From a virus (Duplodnaviria > Heunggongvirae > Uroviricota > Caudoviricetes): 15,691 bases of DNA. The stretch lies in IMG/VR virus record IMGVR_UViG_2778261058_000019. The stretch is one strand, 5' to 3'. The notes beneath the pieces are model-generated. The model saw only the letters and a program-made list of their open reading frames with translations. It was not told the origin of the DNA and ran no database searches. Within the stretch, counting starts at the first letter, position 1; every line of letters begins with the position of its first letter. A program made the position numbers and the translations under genes. This document shows positions 1,109 through 12,383 of the stretch, piece by piece.

Positions 1109-2158
1109 GTGCGGGTATTACTTAGACCTGTTCTGGTGCCTGAGCTTGGGCTGGTGGTCCTTAAGCCGGGCCGTGAATCCATACAGATATTTCATAATCC
1201 TCGAGTGCTGGTGGAACCGGAACCAAAAAGCATGCGTAATCTGCCATCCGGAGTCGTTCCTGCCGTTCGCCAGCCGCTGGCGGAAGACAAAACATTGCTG
1301 CCGTTTTTTAGTAACGAACGGGTGATTCGTGCTGCTGGCGGCGTTGGCGCATTGTCCGACTGGCTATTACGTCATGTTACATCCTGCCAGTGGCCTAATG
1401 GCGATTACCATCACACTGAAACAGTCATTCACCGTTATGGTACCGGCGCAATGGTGTTGTGCTGGCACTGCGACAACCAACTGCGTGACCAGACATCGGA
1501 ATCACTGGAGCTGCTTGCTCAACAAAATCTGACAGCATGGGTGATTGACGTCATCCGTCACGCAATAAGCGGTACGCAGGAGCGGGAATTATCTTTGGCT
1601 GAATTATCCTGGTGGGCGGTCTGCAATCAGGTGGTGGATGCACTACCTGAGGCTGTATCGCGTCGTTCGCTGGGATTACCAGCGGAAAAAATCTGCTCGG
1701 TGTACCGCGAAAGCGACATCGTACCGGGAGAGCAGACCGCCACCAGCATATTGAAACAACGCACAAAAAATCTTGCACCGTTGCCTTACGCCCACCAGCA
1801 ACAAAAATCACCACAGGAAAAGACGGTGGTAAGCATCACCGTTGATCCAGAGTCTCCGGAATCTTTCATGAAGCTGCCTAAACGTCGCCGCTGGGTTAAG
1901 GAGAAATACACACGTTGGGTTAAGACACAGCCGTGTGCTTGCTGCGGTATGCCAGCCGACGATCCGCATCATCTGATTGGTCACGGGCAGGGCGGAATGG
2001 GAACAAAAGCACATGATCTCTTTGTGTTGCCTTTGTGCAGAAAGCATCACAACGAGCTGCATACGGATACAGTGGCATTTGAAGATAAGTATGGCTCCCA
2101 ACTGGAGCTGATATTTCGTTTTATCGATCGCGCGCTGGCAATTGGCGTACTGGCGTAA
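1109..2158 (+). CDS. ydfU: YdfU-like prophage protein (349 aa) with HNH-like Cys/His motif at the C-terminus
   Basis: Long ORF ending TAA 2156-2158. GTG 1109 follows GGAGG (1100-1104) and gives 349 aa, the length I recall for YdfU; the ORF track begins at an upstream ATG (1070, 362 aa). C-terminus reads CACCGMPADDPHHLIGH...CRKHHNELH. Confidence 0.65.
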   Translation: MRVLLRPVLVPELGLVVLKPGRESIQIFHNPRVLVEPEPKSMRNLPSGVVPAVRQPLAEDKTLLPFFSNERVIRAAGGVGALSDWLLRHVTSCQWPNGDYHHTETVIHRYGTGAMVLCWHCDNQLRDQTSESLELLAQQNLTAWVIDVIRHAISGTQERELSLAELSWWAVCNQVVDALPEAVSRRSLGLPAEKICSVYRESDIVPGEQTATSILKQRTKNLAPLPYAHQQQKSPQEKTVVSITVDPESPESFMKLPKRRRWVKEKYTRWVKTQPCACCGMPADDPHHLIGHGQGGMGTKAHDLFVLPLCRKHHNELHTDTVAFEDKYGSQLELIFRFIDRALAIGVLA

Positions 2159-2171
2159 GTGGAGAACGAGC

Positions 2172-2924
2172 ATGAACCTTGAAGCCTTACCAAAATATTA
2201 CTCCCCAAAATCTCCAAAATTGAGCGATGACGCTCCAGCGACAGGCACCGGTTGTTTAACAATTACGGATGTAATGGCAGCGCAGGGGATGGTGCAGTCG
2301 AAAGCACCACTTGGGTTGGCCTTATTTCTGGCAAAAGTTGGTGTTCAGGACCCTCAGTTTGCGATTGAAGGCCTGCTAAATTACGCGATGGCACTGGATA
2401 ACCCGACATTGAACAAATTGAGTGAAGAAATCCGGTTACAGATTATTCCTTACCTCGTGAGTTTTGCCTTTGCTGATTACTCCAGGTCTGCGGCAAGTAA
2501 GGCTCGCTGTGAGCATTGTTCAGGTACGGGATTTTATAATGTATTGCGCGAAGTGGTGAAACACTACAGACGCGGGGAATCTGTAATCAAGGAAGAATGG
2601 GTGAAGGAACTATGTCAGCATTGCCATGGTAAGGGCGAAGCCAGCACAGCGTGCAGAGGGTGTAAGGGTAAAGGGATTGTTCTGGATGAAAAAAGAACCC
2701 GGTTTCATGGCGTACCGGTATATAAGATTTGTGGGCGTTGTAATGGAAACCGGTTTAGTCGTTTACCGACCACGCTGGCACGACGTCATGTCCAGAAGCT
2801 GGTACCAGACCTGACCGATTATCAGTGGTATAAGGGGTATGCGGACGTCATTGGTAAACTGGTAACAAAGTGCTGGCAGGAAGAAGCATACGCGGAAGCG
2901 CAATTGAGGAAGGTGACGAGATAA
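2172..2924 (+). CDS. quuQ: Late-gene antiterminator Q homolog (250 aa) with four DnaJ-type CxxCxGxG repeats
   Basis: ATG 2172 follows GGAG (2161-2164) and gives 250 aa; the ORF track starts at an in-frame TTG at 2142. It sits just upstream of a promoter-plus-terminator module and the lysis genes, as Q does in lambdoid phages. Cys repeats are CEHCSGTG, CQHCHGKG, CRGCKGKG and CGRCNGN. Confidence 0.7.
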   Translation: MNLEALPKYYSPKSPKLSDDAPATGTGCLTITDVMAAQGMVQSKAPLGLALFLAKVGVQDPQFAIEGLLNYAMALDNPTLNKLSEEIRLQIIPYLVSFAFADYSRSAASKARCEHCSGTGFYNVLREVVKHYRRGESVIKEEWVKELCQHCHGKGEASTACRGCKGKGIVLDEKRTRFHGVPVYKICGRCNGNRFSRLPTTLARRHVQKLVPDLTDYQWYKGYADVIGKLVTKCWQEEAYAEAQLRKVTR

Positions 2925-2955
2925 ATGATTTTTGCTGAAGATGGCGACATGATGT

Positions 2956-2984
2956 TTGCATTTTTCAAAAAATATGGATAAAAT
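2956..2984 (+). promoter_or_regulatory. Candidate Q-dependent late promoter (PR'-like)
   Basis: TTGCAT (2956-2961), 17-bp spacer, TAAAAT (2979-2984), immediately after the Q homolog and about 45 nt before a strong terminator. This is the typical PR'-qut-tR' arrangement; called by eye only. Confidence 0.35.
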
Positions 2985-3030
2985 TTTTTCAACGATGGGC
3001 TTTGTATACCCGACGTTAAGAAAAAGTAGA

Positions 3031-3558: not shown

Positions 3559-3858
3559 AAAAATTCCTTAATACTGATAACTTGGCGCACTATACACACG
3601 TTCCTGAAGAAAGCTATAGTTTTTTGATGGGGTTGAAGATGGCTGGATGTCTAAAATAAACATTGCTTCATATGTTCAACTATGCGTTAATGATTGCGTC
3701 GGTTTGAAGAACAGACGATATACGAAGTAGTTTACTAAAGCAGTTCTCATTTCAGGTGTTATTCACTTATTCCTTCTTTGAGTCTCTCCAATTAAGTACG
3801 AAGTCGTTTCTGTTATGCAAACCATTTATGCCGAAAGGCTCAAGTTAAGGAATGTAGA

Positions 3859-4074
3859 ATGTCAAATAAAATGACTGGTTTAGTAAAATGGTTTAACGCT
3901 GATAAAGGTTTCGGCTTTATTTCTCCTGTTGATGGTAGTAAAGATGTGTTTGTGCATTTTTCTGCGATTCAGAATGATAATTATCGAACCTTATTTGAAG
4001 GTCAAAAGGTTACCTTCTCTATAGAGAGTGGTGCTAAAGGTCCTGCAGCAGCAAATGTCATCATTACTGATTAA
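3859..4074 (+). CDS. cspB: Cold-shock protein CspB (CspA family, 71 aa)
   Basis: [38 protein letters not shown]... carries the cold-shock domain RNP motifs KGFGFI and VFVHF. SD AAGGA at 3847-3851, ATG at 3859. Confidence 0.9.
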
Positions 4075-4356
4075 AATTCATCGCTCGTCTGTATACGATA
4101 ACGAAGAAGGCTGATGCCTGAGTAGAGATACGGACAGAGTAGTGAATATTGGATCTCTTTAATAAAAAGTAAGGAGGTCCAATACATGAAACAATGGCTA
4201 GCATATTTGGCAAAATCTTAATCAGGAAAAGTATGCTAACCATTGTGGTGAAGTGCAGGTTTGCTGCATGAATAGTTTTACAGCAGAAGCTAACTGCTGG
4301 CATGGCAAAACAAAGTGCGTAAGTGGATGACTCCCACAAAAAGCACCACAATCTCA

Positions 4357-4378
4357 AACCCGCTCAGGCGGGTTTTTT
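4357..4378. terminator. Rho-independent terminator, probably bidirectional (cspB transcript and the convergent zinc-ribbon gene)
   Basis: Hairpin AACCCGC-TCAG-GCGGGTT followed by TTTTTT on the + strand, with an A-run upstream that gives a U-run on the - strand. Confidence 0.65.
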
Positions 4379-4437
4379 ATTATCTGCTTTAAATATATTA
4401 TTAAAATATAAAAAATACTTGTTACTAATAAAATCAA

Positions 4438-4608
4438 TCAGGCTACAGCTTTAAGATTTGTCTGGAATACTTTGTTGCAATGAGGGCAGATCAAAAGGGC
4501 ACCTTTTTGTACTCTTGAAAAACTGTGTTCTGACTCTTGGGTGCAGTTTGGGCAGGAACATTTAACGAGATAATTACGGCGTGATTTTGAGTTTTTACGT
4601 TCTGACAT
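4438..4608 (-). CDS. ynfU: Small zinc-ribbon protein (56 aa; CxCxxC...CxxC)
   Basis: ATG at 4608-4606 is preceded by AGGA about 8 nt upstream. Product MSERKNSKSRRNYLVKCSCPNCTQESEHSFSRVQKGALLICPHCNKVFQTNLKAVA. The track's 73-aa version starts at an upstream ATG with no SD. The symbol ynfU (56-aa zinc-binding protein in Qin) is from memory and is uncertain. Confidence 0.5.
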   Translation of the reverse strand: MSERKNSKSRRNYLVKCSCPNCTQESEHSFSRVQKGALLICPHCNKVFQTNLKAVA

Positions 4609-4827
4609 AGGCTTTTCCTGTATAAATGGCCGTATACAGTACACTAAATATGAAAACATTTCTCGTATTATTATTTTATATATGACTTTCTTTCAAAATA
4701 ATTACCCACATTTTTAATGTGTATGTTTTTTTAGCGCCGTTGAGAACAACGTGTGCTGTCAAAACTACCCCGTAGACTCCGATCTTTTCAAACATATTGC
4801 ACCATCCGTGTACATCGGGGTGAGGAT

Positions 4828-6383: not shown

Positions 6384-6609
6384 GGTAATATTAAATCGGA
6401 ACATTTACATCGCGGAATGTAAAATTTAAATAAAAAGGACTCTTCCATGAGCCAAAATTCCTGAAATCTTAAGGGTAAGATAAAAGGTCTTAATCAGAAT
6501 GACACGTTTTATTAATAAATAAAGCTATTCTTTCATTGCTGTGTTTTTCTTTACAAAAGTAATCCTTGCTATGGGTGGTTAATCATGCGTTAATGGTGTT
6601 CTGGTTTGT

Positions 6610-6642
6610 TACAAATTTATCTGAAGCAGTCATTGTTATAAT
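6610..6642 (+). promoter_or_regulatory. Candidate cspI promoter (perfect -10 TATAAT at 6637-6642, weak -35, AT-rich upstream)
   Basis: TATAAT lies about 100 nt upstream of the cspI ATG, consistent with the long 5' UTRs of cspA-family genes. Called by eye; low confidence. Confidence 0.3.
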
Positions 6643-6745
6643 TTTATTATTTGTACCTCTTGAGATTTCCTTGTTGGTTTTTCTCTCTGATATTTTTTTT
6701 CGGACCATTCTGCCCAAGGGCTAATTTCTTCAAAAGGTAATAATT

Positions 6746-6958
6746 ATGTCTAACAAAATGACTGGTTTAGTGAAATGGTTTAACCCTGAAAAAGGTTTTG
6801 GTTTCATCACGCCGAAAGATGGCAGCAAAGATGTGTTTGTCCATTTCTCAGCAATTCAGAGCAACGATTTCAAAACATTAACTGAGAATCAGGAAGTTGA
6901 ATTTGGTATTGAGAACGGACCTAAAGGTCCTGCCGCTGTTCATGTAGTGGCGCTTTGA
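6746..6958 (+). CDS. cspI: Cold-shock protein CspI (CspA family, 70 aa)
   Basis: [38 protein letters not shown]... is a cold-shock domain protein and a close paralog of the cspB copy at 3859. Confidence 0.9.
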
Positions 6959-7163
6959 GGTAGACAATATTACAAACCATATTCACTTTAGATGCCCGTG
7001 TTGTCATGGTTCCCAGTATAGAACATCATCTTTTGATGTTTCTGACATGAATCCTTTCGGGGCAAAATGTATCTTTTGTAAATCAATGATGATTACATTT
7101 GATAATATTTCACAATACTTAAATGCCAGCCGTCTGTCGTTGGATTTAAAAAAGTGAAAATGA

Positions 7164-9045: not shown

Positions 9046-9591
9046 ATGGAAGTCAACAAAAAGCAGCTGGCTGACATTTTCGGTGCGAGTATCCGTACCA
9101 TTCAGAACTGGCAGGAACAGGGAATGCCCGTTCTGCGAGGCGGTGGCAAGGGTAATGAGGTGCTTTATGACTCTGCCGCCGTTATAAGATGGTATGCCGA
9201 AAGGGATGCTGAAATTGAGAACGAAAAGCTGCGCCGGGAAGTTGAAGAACTGCGGCAGGCCAGCGAGACAGATCTCCAGCCAGGGACTATTGAGTACGAA
9301 CGCCATCGACTTACGCGTGCGCAGGCCGACGCACAGGAGCTGAAAAATGCCAGAGACTCCGCTGAAGTGGTGGAAACCGCATTCTGTACTTTCGTGCTGT
9401 CGCGGATCGCAGGTGAAATTGCCAGTATTCTCGACGGGATCCCCCTGTCGGTGCAGCGGCGTTTTCCGGAACTGGAAAACCGACATGTTGATTTCCTGAA
9501 ACGGGATATCATCAAAGCCATGAACAAAGCAGCCGCGCTGGATGAACTGATACCGGGGTTGCTGAGTGAATATATCGAACAGTCAGGTTAA
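9046..9591 (+). CDS. nohQ: Terminase small subunit Nu1 homolog (181 aa), apparently full length
   Basis: MEVNKKQLADIFGASIRTIQNWQEQGMPVLRGGGKGNEVLYDSAAVIRWYAERDAEIEN... is essentially lambda gpNu1 with its N-terminal helix-turn-helix. The 3' end overlaps the start of the terminase A reading frame as in lambda. Symbol by analogy with Qin (nohA/nohQ). Confidence 0.85.
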   Translation: MEVNKKQLADIFGASIRTIQNWQEQGMPVLRGGGKGNEVLYDSAAVIRWYAERDAEIENEKLRREVEELRQASETDLQPGTIEYERHRLTRAQADAQELKNARDSAEVVETAFCTFVLSRIAGEIASILDGIPLSVQRRFPELENRHVDFLKRDIIKAMNKAAALDELIPGLLSEYIEQSG

Positions 9592-11242
9592 CAGGCTGCG
9601 GCATTTTGTCCGCGCCGGGCTTCGCTCACTGTTCAGGCCGGAGCCACAGACCGCCGTTGAATGGGCGGATGCTAATTACTATCTCCCGAAAGAATCCGCA
9701 TACCAGGAAGGGCGCTGGGAAACACTGCCCTTTCAGCGGGCCATCATGAATGCGATGGGCAGCGACTACATCCGTGAGGTGAATGTGGTGAAGTCTGCCC
9801 GTGTCGGTTATTCCAAAATGCTGCTGGGTGTTTATGCCTACTTTATAGAGCATAAGCAGCGCAACACCCTTATCTGGTTGCCGACGGATGGTGATGCCGA
9901 GAACTTTATGAAAACCCACGTTGAGCCGACCATCCGCGATATTCCGTCGCTGCTGGCGCTGGCTCCGTGGTATGGCAAAAAGCACCGGGATAACACGCTC
10001 ACTATGAAGCGTTTTTCCAATGGTCGTGGCTTCTGGTGCCTGGGCGGTAAAGCGGCAAAAAACTACCGTGAAAAGTCGGTGGATGTGGCGGGTTATGATG
10101 AACTTGCTGCCTTTGATGAGGATATTGAACAGGAAGGCTCTCCGACGTTCCTTGGCGACAAACGTATTGAAGGCTCGGTCTGGCCAAAGTCCATCCGTGG
10201 CTCCACGCCCAAAGTGAGAGGCACCTGCCAGATTGAGCGTGCAGCCAGTGAATCCCTGCATTTTATGCGTTTTCATGTTGCCTGCCCGCACTGCGGGGAG
10301 GAGCAGTATCTTAAATTTGGCGACAAAGAGACGCCGTTTGGCCTCAAATGGACGCCGGATGACCCCTCTAGCGTGTTTTATCTCTGCGAGCATAATGCCT
10401 GCGTCATCCGCCAGCAGGAGCTGGACTTTACTGATGCCCGTTATATCTGCGAAAAGACCGGGATCTGGACCCGTGATGGCATTCTCTGGTTTTCGTCATC
10501 CGGTGAAGAGATTGAGCCGCCGGACAGTGTGACCTTTCACATCTGGACGGCGTACAGCCCGTTCACCACCTGGGTGCAGATTGTCAAAGACTGGATGAAG
10601 ACGAAAGGGGATACGGGAAAACGTAAAACCTTCGTGAACACCACGCTCGGTGAGACATGGGAAGCGAAAATCGGCGAACGTCCGGATGCTGAGGTGATGG
10701 CGGAGCGGAAAGAGCATTATTCAGCGCCCGTTCCTGACCGTGTGGCTTACCTGACCGCCGGTATCGACTCCCAGCTGGACCGCTACGAAATGCGCGTATG
10801 GGGATGGGGGCCGGGTGAGGAAAGCTGGCTGATTGACCGGCAGATTATTATGGGTCGCCACGACGATGAACAGACGCTGCTGCGTGTGGATGAGGCCATC
10901 AATAAAACCTATACCCGCCGGAATGGTGCAGAAATGTCGGTATCCCGTATCTGCTGGGATACTGGCGGGATTGACCCGACCATTGTGTATGAACGCTCGA
11001 AAAAACATGGGCTGTTCCGGGTGATCCCCATTAAAGGGGCATCCGTCTACGGAAAGCCGGTGGCCAGCATGCCACGTAAGCGAAACAAAAACGGGGTTTA
11101 CCTTACCGAAATCGGTACGGATACCGCGAAAGAGCAGATTTATAACCGCTTCACACTGACGCCGGAAGGGGATGAACCGCTTCCCGGTGCCGTTCACTTC
11201 CCGAATACCCGAAACTTGCAGTTGCTTATCCGTCAGGCGTGA
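9566..11242 (+). pseudogene. Terminase large subunit (gpA-like), 3'-truncated by a deletion; 558 codons with a short out-of-frame tail
   Basis: GTG 9566 starts MNISNSQVNRLRHFVRAGLRSLFRPEPQTAVEWADANYYLPKES..., which follows lambda gpA (641 aa) as I recall it up to ...LPGAVHFPN near 11207. The frame then reads [11 protein letters not shown] and stops at 11240-11242, so the C-terminal ~90 residues of gpA are missing. Confidence 0.85.
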
Positions 11243-11808: not shown

Positions 11809-12383
11809 TGGCATTCAGAATGAGTGAACAACCACGGACCATAAAAATTTATAATCTGCTGGCCGGAACTAATGAATTTATTGGTGAAGGTGATGCATAT
11901 ATTCCGCCTCATACAGGTCTGCCAGCAAACAGTACCGATATTGCACCGCCAGATATTCCGGCTGGCTTCGTGGCTGTTTTCAACAGTGATGAGTCATCGT
12001 GGCATCTCGTTGAAGATCATCGGGGTAAAACGGTTTATGACGTGGCTTCCGGCGACGCGTTATTTATTTCTGAACTCGGTCCGTTACCGGAAAATGTTAC
12101 CTGGTTATCGCCGGAAGGGGAGTTTCAGAAGTGGAACGGCACAGTCTGGGTGAAGGATACGGAAGCAGAAAAACTGTTCCGGATCCGGGAGGCGGAAGAA
12201 ACAAAAAACAACCTGATGCAGGTAGCCAGTGAGCATATTGCGCCGCTTCAGGATGTTGCAGATCTGGAAATTGCAACGGAGGAAGAAATCTCGTTGCTGG
12301 AAGCATGGAAAAAGTATCGGGTATTGCTGAACCGTGTTGATACGTCAACTGCACAGGATATTGAATGGCCAGCACTGCCGTAG
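11808..12383 (+). CDS. tfaQ: Tail fiber assembly protein (lambda Tfa-like, 191 aa)
   Basis: ATG overlaps the stf stop (TAATG). [54 protein letters not shown]... matches lambda Tfa as I recall it. Confidence 0.85.

Follow-up and report, generated by a model that had tools for sequence, protein, structure and literature searches.

A conserved structured region follows cspB in a Qin-type prophage

The 15,691-nt stretch of viral DNA analysed here (hereafter the window) is an Escherichia coli Qin-type prophage. Its positions 3700-4700 are 100% identical to K-12 MG1655, in which the counterpart of the stretch is the cryptic prophage Qin, and the same ~1-kb stretch is 100% identical in ~1,500 other complete E. 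coli genomes. The Qin gene order is Q (ydfT), ynfS and cspF (both on the other strand), the cold-shock gene cspB, ynfU (again on the other strand), the holin gene essQ, ydfR, the lysozyme gene rrrQ and rzpQ. Our subject is the interval between cspB and the convergent ynfU, in which RefSeq lists no feature in K-12. We find that this interval is best explained, with a probability of roughly 0.6, as a conserved non-coding 3′ untranslated domain of a clade of cspB-type cold-shock genes carried by mobile elements, and not as a small gene.

A previous description, made from the letters of the window without database searches (the sequence-only reading), had noticed a long structured 3′ extension of the cspB transcript containing an 11-codon open reading frame (ORF) behind a perfect Shine-Dalgarno (SD) sequence. 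Direct reading bears out all of its coordinates, and we confirm that the observation is real; the interpretation attached to it is partly supported. The extension indeed runs from the cspB stop codon to a terminator. It forms the tail of the cspB transcript: it shares the strand of cspB, a promoter scan of 4075-4356 detected no sigma-70-like site on the + strand from which it could be transcribed separately, and it ends at the cspB terminator. This terminator, ~283 nt 3′ of the cspB stop codon and 60 nt from that of ynfU, is the sole strong + strand site in a terminator scan. It had been thought to be common to cspB and ynfU; the hairpin is present, but it is not clearly bidirectional, the same scan giving no terminator on the − strand, where the hairpin is trailed only by UUUGAGAUU.

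The 308-nt untranslated region (UTR) is far more stably folded than its composition would predict, with a minimum free energy (MFE) of -105.2 kcal/mol against -72.0 +/- 5.0 kcal/mol for shuffled sequences (z = -6.6; none of 100 shuffles was as good). It consists of four parts: a hairpin that we call M1, a lineage-specific hairpin M2 that contains the SD sequence, a core of ~165 nt, and the intrinsic terminator. Their coordinates are collected in Table 1; subtracting a window position p from 1645413 gives its NC_000913.3 coordinate, on the minus strand. The match to the Rfam cspA thermoregulator (RF01766) on the cspB transcript, at 3698-4090, ends 16 nt into the 3′ UTR.

Table 1. Features of the cspB-ynfU region, in window coordinates
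Feature	Position	Strand	Basis and details
cspB coding sequence	3859-4074	+	ORF list and RefSeq annotation of the identical K-12 sequence; stop codon 4072-4074
cspB 3′ UTR, conserved structured non-coding RNA domain	4075-4378	+	Fold z-score and homologous UTRs; NC_000913.3 1641035-1641338, minus strand
M1 hairpin	4087-4135	+	Outer stem 4087-4094 / 4128-4135; extends to 4076-4146 in the MFE fold
M1 kink-turn-like internal loop	4099-4125	+	C-stem 4099-4102 / 4122-4125; bulge GAA 4103-4105; distal stem 4108-4111 / 4116-4119
M2 hairpin, Qin lineage only	4147-4184	+	Arms 4147-4161 / 4170-4184, 15 bp; inverted repeat and folding
SD-like sequence TAAGGAGGT	4170-4178	+	Direct reading; fully base-paired in M2
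Mini-ORF MKQWLAYLAKS, 11 codons, lineage-specific	4186-4221	+	Direct reading and homologue comparison; stop codon 4219-4221
Conserved core (P0/P0-ext, P1-P4)	4189-4354	+	Covariance model R1: 144.8 bits, E = 3.7e-34
P0 hairpin	4196-4241	+	4196-4208 / 4229-4241; 92% of cells paired, 3 pairs changed on both sides
P0-ext	4191-4246	+	4191-4195 (ACAAU) / 4242-4246 (AUUGU); state 2; competes with the outer half of P1
P1, long-range helix closing the state-1 four-way junction	4242-4352	+	4242-4250 / 4344-4352; in the core MFE fold
P2 hairpin	4253-4269	+	4253-4258 / 4264-4269; state-2 extension (P2-ext) 4247-4249 / 4275-4277
P3 hairpin	4281-4299	+	4281-4286 / 4294-4299; 7-nt loop AAGCUAA 4287-4293
Junction AAAGUGCGUAAG and P4 hairpin	4312-4346	+	Junction 4312-4323; P4 4323-4327 / 4333-4337; P4-ext GUGC 4315-4318 / GCAC 4343-4346, state 2
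cspB intrinsic terminator	4356-4378	+	Hairpin 4356-4375, 8-bp stem, loop UCAG, six U
ynfU, convergent zinc-ribbon small protein	4438-4608	-	Pfam YnfU, E = 3.5e-31; RefSeq

The element is widespread on mobile elements and tied to csp genes

A BLAST search with the 363-nt intergenic stretch returned near-identical Qin-type copies, an 82% identical match over ~145 nt (4240-4382), located both in Cyrano, a phage-plasmid, and in related E. coli plasmids of ~100 kb, and a 75% identical copy in phage PHB10. A three-way alignment of these showed compensatory substitutions in four stems, with several unpaired stretches identical. Further copies came from scanning IMG/VR, and a set of genomes with one per species, for sequence patterns, and from BLAST against plasmids. 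In all, more than 150 copies were found in at least nine enterobacterial genera, carried by prophages, phage-plasmids and plasmids, among them ~110-kb plasmids of Klebsiella and E. coli. They fall into several sequence lineages: A, the Qin type; A′, comprising the copies L064 and L186; B and B′, from E. coli and Klebsiella phage-plasmids; C, from PHB10-like phages; and C′, from Kosakonia, Enterobacter, Kluyvera, Phytobacter, Leclercia, Pseudescherichia, Atlantibacter and the K. aerogenes plasmid pC9_001.

What nearly all of these copies have in common is the gene that precedes them. Of the 153 copies with sufficient sequence upstream, 151 have an ORF of the CspA family immediately before them on the same strand, that of Cyrano included, in which the csp gene is unannotated; the exceptions are L028 and L101, the latter with an insertion sequence between ORF and element. 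The conserved entity is therefore the 3′ UTR of a clade of mobile cspB-type genes. A search with CspB as query gave 100%-identical Qin copies only, and thus no unbiased sample of csp genes.

The cspB-ynfU interval is also a target for insertions, with IS1 or IS200C inside it in some E. coli genomes. In L101 (about 2920-3010) the insertion sequence ends right before AACCAUUG; M1, M2 and most of P0 are gone, and P1-P4 are left.

M1 and the core are conserved as structures

M1 starts ~12 nt past the csp stop codon and is predicted independently in each lineage. When the copies are aligned, 89.9% of the cells at paired positions can pair, compared with 24-41% in slid controls, and 8 of the 16 pairs have changed on both sides. 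The 8-bp outer stem is wholly different between lineages and always pairs (GUCUGUAU/AUACGGAC, UGGAUCUG/CAGAUCCA and CAGGCCUG/CAGGCCUG). Inside it is an internal loop that reads C-GAA-GA on one strand (4102-4107) and GA-G on the other (4120-4122), with the potential for tandem pairs G4106•A4121 and A4107•G4120. Judged by its sequence pattern alone, we take this loop to resemble a kink-turn of the Kt-7 or box C/D kind. The pattern is present in 10 of 13 aligned M1 hairpins, and the stems that flank it covary; L170, L190 and L192 depart from it, with degenerate forms.

The core was described by a covariance model, R1, built from 21 diverse copies, which finds a single copy of the core in the window. 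Its long-range helix P1 is paired in 94.7% of cells, and four of its nine pairs have changed on both sides. The repeat CAGCAG-AAGCTAA-CTGCTG, which the sequence-only reading had listed among stem-forming repeats, proved to be a helix, P3, that is real and conserved. Its loop AAGCUAA, like the junction AAAGUGCGUAAG, does not vary across copies. The first searches required these two motifs, a possible source of ascertainment bias; however, a pattern restricted to P1 and P2 retrieved 47 loci with both motifs in every one, so their invariance is no artefact of ascertainment. The copies found by BLAST in Cyrano, PHB10 and pC9_001 carry them too.

Two sequence resemblances involve the core. The P0 loop AAUCUUAAUCAGGAA (4214-4228) is complementary at 13 of 15 positions to the stop-codon region of cspB, UUACUGAUUAAAAUU (4064-4078); both segments differ in sequence in other lineages, and pairing between them could be a long-range contact in the Qin type. 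There is also a 13-nt direct repeat with one mismatch, of which one copy (UAUGCAAACCAUU, 3814-3826) is in the cspB 5′ UTR, where it is the helix partner of the 5′-terminal GGUUUGAAGAACAGA, and the other (UAUGCUAACCAUU, 4232-4244) is at the P0/P1 boundary of the 3′ UTR. This repeat could be due to chance or to mimicry between the 5′ and 3′ UTRs.

Two mutually exclusive folds are both conserved

Examination of the core revealed not one but two conserved arrangements of its helices. In state 1, P0, P1, P2, P3 and P4 form a four-way junction. State 2 retains P0, P2, P3 and P4, and the strands of P1 are taken up by P0-ext, P2-ext and P4-ext, so that the two states are mutually exclusive. Different predictions favor different states: RNAalifold alone gives state 2, P0-ext included, the MFE fold of the core as a single sequence gives state 1, and the MFE fold of the full UTR is a mixture.

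Both states are maintained in the alignment to a similar degree. In state 1, 95.5% of cells are paired, and 11 pairs (four in P1) show changes on both sides; in state 2 the figure is 96.7%, with 10 such pairs (two in P0-ext). Slid controls on the same alignment reach 25-53% for both states. P0-ext by itself is paired in 94.3% of cells (slid controls, 10-56%), with two of its five pairs changed on both sides. In addition, where P1 changes from A-U to G-C, the state-2 partners still pair through G•U or G-C, as expected if both folds are under selection. Taken together, the comparison of homologues indicates a conserved non-coding RNA with two incompatible folds, both kept pairable by evolution. 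By predicted occupancy the homologues split roughly half and half between the two states, and the window is close to balance, its predicted occupancies, with P0-ext favored, being 0.73/0.27 at 10 °C and 0.60/0.37 at 37 °C. Uniform behavior as a thermosensor was not found; the occupancies differ between homologues and shift only modestly with temperature.

The alignment also identifies the strand. There are 76 G•U cells and 14 A•C cells, an excess that assigns the RNA to the cspB strand and not to an antisense or ynfU transcript. This bears on the idea that the conservation comes from something other than a + strand RNA, be it the 97-codon ORF on the minus strand (4067-4357, hypothetical in the annotation of phage PhiR42_1), an antisense or ynfU 3′ UTR RNA, or a site at the DNA level. 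A long minus-strand frame is indeed open in several lineages. However, it matches no PHROG family, it is broken by 1- and 2-nt indels between close homologues, and it is closed in lineages B and B′ and in L166 and L186; moreover, an open frame would be expected from the pyrimidine-rich composition of the minus strand alone. Because the compensatory changes and the G•U excess fit only an RNA of the cspB strand, we regard these explanations as highly improbable.

The Shine-Dalgarno sequence is one arm of a lineage-specific hairpin

The sequence-only reading had placed its functional weight on the SD sequence and the mini-ORF. All the parts of a small gene are present: TAAGGAGGT stands 7 nt before an ATG that opens a frame with its own stop codon. 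This SD, however, is the 3′ arm of M2, which folds at -18.4 kcal/mol (z = -5.6), and the ATG is 2 nt past the hairpin. The arrangement AAGGAGG-N4-9-ATG occurs once in the window, with 0.26 occurrences expected, and 45 of 200 shuffled windows contain at least one; thus the combination of SD and ATG alone is within chance at this scale.

At the position of M2, other lineages have an unrelated hairpin or none, and an SD-like sequence with a start codon is absent from the entire UTR of every other lineage of the element. Copies of the L064 type have lost M2, the ORF and P0 and kept M1, P1-P4 and the terminator; L186 has no ATG and retains the core. The conservation of SD and ORF that one would expect of a small gene is therefore missing outside the Qin type. 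Within it, most of the 87 copies retain SD and ATG, and deletion variants occur. The peptide varies (L5P, A9V, K10I, S11T/P, and TGG to TGA in one copy): all six substitutions in the ORF change or truncate the peptide and none is synonymous. The commonest variant of the SD, AAGGAGAT, is a G-to-A change that converts a U•G pair of M2 into U-A, which strengthens the hairpin and weakens the SD. Such conservation as the mini-ORF does have is explained by its codons 2-3 doubling as the 5′ strand of P0-ext and its codons 4-8 as the 5′ strand of P0. Neither the mini-ORF nor its peptide was found in published text or in small-ORF supplements (Stringer 2021, PIRT-seq), the coverage of supplements being incomplete.

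Could the mini-ORF nonetheless be a translated unit, either a micro-peptide gene or a ribosome-loading device? It has a perfect 9-nt SD at a spacing of 7 nt, it is the only AAGGAGG with an ATG in the window, and it coincides exactly with strands of the alternative pairing. In one version of this idea, ribosomes on the mini-ORF would melt P0 and P0-ext and drive the core to the P1 junction, a translation-coupled switch. Against it are the sequestration of the SD in a 15-bp hairpin and the pattern of loss and substitution just described, and we consider a translated unit very unlikely. The mini-ORF is most likely incidental, a chance product of one arm of M2 in the Qin lineage. What looks like a textbook SD with its ATG can be nothing more than an arm of a structural hairpin.

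Two other resemblances of M2 were set aside. It gives a weak match to the Rfam FourU thermometer (RF01795) at 4150-4181 (16.6 bits, E = 1, against a gathering score of 60), which reflects only a U-rich strand paired to an SD. As in FourU thermometers, a U-rich strand pairs with AAGGAGG in a hairpin, but M2, with its 15 bp, is judged too stable to melt at physiological temperature, and it is located in a 3′ UTR ahead of an unconserved ORF, in one lineage only. The 5′ arm of M2 (UAUUGGAUCUCUUUA, also UUGGAUCUCUUUA) resembles the 3′ end of 16S rRNA, UUGGAUCACCUCCUUA; this probably follows from its complementarity to an SD.

Relationship to known RNAs

The element does not belong to a cataloged family. 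Rfam 15, searched at gathering and at permissive thresholds with the window and nine homologous loci, has no family for it; besides the FourU match, the scans returned only the cspA thermoregulator, IS009 and STnc100 copies located nearby. ARAGORN found no tRNA-like gene in 3900-4600, and a search of the literature and supplements for the cspB 3′ UTR, by peptide and by K-12 coordinates, found no description, with incomplete coverage of the supplements.

Two kinds of RNA invite comparison by virtue of their position relative to a gene. The cspA mRNA thermosensor (RF01766) adopts alternative folds at low and high temperature that set translation and stability of the mRNA. Like the element, it is attached to a gene of the CspA family, but it comprises the 5′ UTR and coding region and has no similarity of sequence or structure to the 3′ element. 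CpxQ, SroC and DapZ are small RNAs (sRNAs) derived from 3′ UTRs that share the terminator of the mRNA; they are short and simply folded, with defined seeds and Hfq dependence. The element shares with these a conserved 3′ UTR that extends to the parental terminator, with no separate promoter detected and with conservation beyond the terminator hairpin. In contrast to them it is ~300 nt long, with a four-way junction, a kink-turn-like hairpin and two conserved folds.

Among known RNAs, the nearest are STnc100 (RF02076), EcOnc27 (sRNA103) and PasD. In Stx2 phages STnc100 follows stx2B at a distance of 75 nt and overlaps with EcOnc27, an RNA of about 235-247 nt that is bound by Hfq and destabilized in its absence (PMC12370729, PMC12711010, PMC4104026). 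PasD is related to STnc100 in structure, and the Pas sRNAs are neighbors of Q and of the operon for holin and lysozyme (bioRxiv 10.64898/2026.05.13.724894). According to Tree et al., sRNA genes are present at the moron site downstream of PR′. These RNAs and the element share several characteristics. Each is a structured RNA of ~170-250 nt that directly follows a moron gene, in the interval from Q to the genes for holin and lysozyme, and in the window the order Q (ydfT), cspF, cspB, element, ynfU, essQ places the element in just this slot. The STnc100 group also has a multi-helix domain with a long-range closing helix, RUGRUGAA...GCAYCAY, followed by a terminator, and the closing helix of the element, UGGUGAA...GCACCA, is similar.

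Several differences set the element apart. The Rfam STnc100 model (gathering score 47 bits), at E up to 10, has no match on window 4075-4450 or at the element in L003, L004, L117 and L192; conversely, R1 gives a canonical STnc100 copy 3.9 bits, which is no detection. The internal helices and invariant motifs differ, and the element is strictly tied to csp genes, has the additional M1 domain and has a conserved alternative fold. Bona fide STnc100 copies (47.6-52.7 bits) are found in three csp cassettes, 0.5-1.2 kb downstream of the element and in the same orientation: L004 3788-3989 (+), L192 2120-2315 (+) and L117 1093-1286 (-), in the order csp, element, (ynfU), a 75-aa ORF (phrog_3425), STnc100. 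An RNA in L163, at 1376-1609 (-), matches both models: it scores 32.9 bits with R1, over the flank, P0, P1 and P2, and 45.1 bits with STnc100, just below threshold, and it is upstream of a phrog_204 gene with no csp gene adjoining. It may be either an evolutionary intermediate or a mosaic. We therefore do not file the element as a member of the STnc100 group, to which its relation is distant or mosaic.

These comparisons raise the possibility that the element acts in trans, as an Hfq- or ProQ-dependent sRNA of the STnc100/EcOnc27/PasD type that is cut upstream of P0 from the cspB transcript or a late transcript. Its seed would be the invariant P3 loop or the A-rich junction, and its Hfq anchor the U-tail of the terminator. 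The shared slot, the L163 RNA, the STnc100 copies close by in three cassettes, the invariant single-stranded motifs and the six-U terminator of the Qin type all point in this direction. On the other side, the two covariance models do not recognize each other's RNAs, the element was never found detached from a csp ORF save behind an insertion sequence, and no promoter of its own was detected. Furthermore, the conservation of M1 so close to the stop codon argues for the whole UTR rather than a separate gene, lineages C and C′ are without a canonical terminator and U-tail, and within the window there is no site complementary to the invariant junction motif beyond chance. On balance we think a trans-acting sRNA possible and not the likelier outcome.

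The two folds are unlikely to control termination

A junction of several helices, with nucleotides that are invariant and with two conserved folds that exclude each other, is also what one would look for in a riboswitch. The element could sense a ligand or a protein and control read-through of the terminator, either antisense into ynfU or dnaE or, in C′ cassettes, into the downstream ORF on the same strand (75 aa, phrog_3425), with no strong terminator in between. The geometry of the other types speaks against this. The terminator hairpin of the Qin and phage-plasmid types has no nucleotide in common with either fold, so that neither state should alter termination, and the only sequence resembling a ribosome-binding site is in M2, likewise outside both folds. 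In addition, the downstream genes vary by lineage (ynfU, which adjoins the element in some lineages only, dnaE or phrog_3425) and the upstream csp gene is constant, and there is no candidate ligand. Control of read-through thus seems quite unlikely. A role as an antiterminator like put was rejected by reasoning: if the cspB terminator were read through in a lysogen, the lysis genes would be expressed from the cspB promoter.

A proposed role at the 3′ end of cold-shock transcripts

We return to the reading that the element is a conserved 3′ untranslated domain of mobile cspB-type genes and ask how it might work. The RNA would appear on cold induction of cspB or when late transcription antiterminated by Q crosses the element. 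During transcription the helices of state 2 would be expected to form first because all are local; state 1 needs a 3′ strand that is made ~100 nt later. Temperature, an RNA chaperone (the Csp protein itself, for example) or some other factor could then bring about a shift to the P1 junction, or the reverse, and the resulting fold would set the fate of the 3′ end of the transcript by changing what is exposed there.

Two outcomes can be envisioned. The first is cis-acting control of the stability or processing of the csp mRNA, which we consider a serious candidate at somewhat less than even odds. We favor a role in cis because the link to csp persists in prophage, phage-plasmid and conjugative-plasmid contexts, M1 is ~12 nt from the stop codon, lineages C and C′ have no canonical terminator, and in C′ an ORF on the same strand follows. 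The second, for which the analogy is with EcOnc27 and STnc100, is release of a stable regulatory RNA of ~190 nt; this is a less probable outcome, although a stable or 3′-UTR-derived RNA, as the sequence-only reading had suggested, is a live possibility. More speculatively, the element may represent a new class of bistable 3′-end RNA switch, in which a four-way-junction sensor is toggled by temperature, a Csp chaperone or another factor. We hold this broader idea to be unlikely as it stands.

Several observations weigh against the 3′-domain reading or parts of it. In lineages C and C′ there is no canonical terminator after P1, and in C′ a same-strand ORF is downstream; the element is therefore not always a terminal 3′ UTR. 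At 37 °C, transcription of cspB is largely stopped by Rho in the 5′ UTR or ORF (PMC7815308), so the UTR is expected mainly after cold shock or in Q-antiterminated late transcription, and the Term-seq supplements checked from that study contain no 3′ end near the cspB terminator. As to the two folds, temperature is predicted to have a weak effect, and one that differs between homologues; in P2-ext and P4-ext the variation is confined to one side of the helix, and P2-ext in the window consists of three G•U pairs. The lineages are few and all from Enterobacteriaceae, so that the covariation counts lean on few independent events; the shuffle control is uncorrected for relatedness, which the slid controls do not ignore. 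Finally, action in cis and in trans is not separable from sequence.

Outside riboswitches and attenuators it is rare to find two folds that exclude each other and are equally conserved. Should the element control the lifetime of cspB-type messages, cold-shock regulation, hitherto accounted for by way of the 5′ UTR, would gain a layer at the 3′ end. If it is instead released as an RNA, it would be a cold- or lysis-induced addition to the prophage sRNAs between Q and the lysis genes, some of which modulate host and virulence genes. Were the switch real, its toggling would link cold shock, or the late transcription of the phage, with decay of the mRNA or with the release of a regulatory RNA, and it would be a 3′-UTR counterpart of the cspA 5′-UTR thermosensor, present on phages and plasmids across Enterobacteriaceae, E. 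coli K-12 included. That a stretch of ~300 nt is still uncataloged in K-12 is itself instructive, this being the most closely annotated bacterial genome.

Other features of the window

The window contains a second match to the cspA thermoregulator, at 6600-6985 (+) with 112.8 bits, which spans cspI. Unlike cspB, cspI has no copy of the 3′ element, and R1 finds none near it; the small ORFs ynfQ and ynfR come next. Farther downstream, 9046-11242 holds a nohA-like ORF (181 aa) followed by a 558-aa ORF at 9566-11242. At the corresponding place K-12 Qin has nohA and then stfQ, and because of this difference the source strain of the window seems to be other than MG1655, with a different and perhaps more complete Qin-type prophage. 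Rfam IS009 (RF02111), an RNA of unknown function associated with prophages, is matched over its full length at 12151-12349 (+), with 220 bits where the gathering score is 117; according to the Pas sRNA preprint (bioRxiv 10.64898/2026.05.13.724894) it is frequent near PasB.

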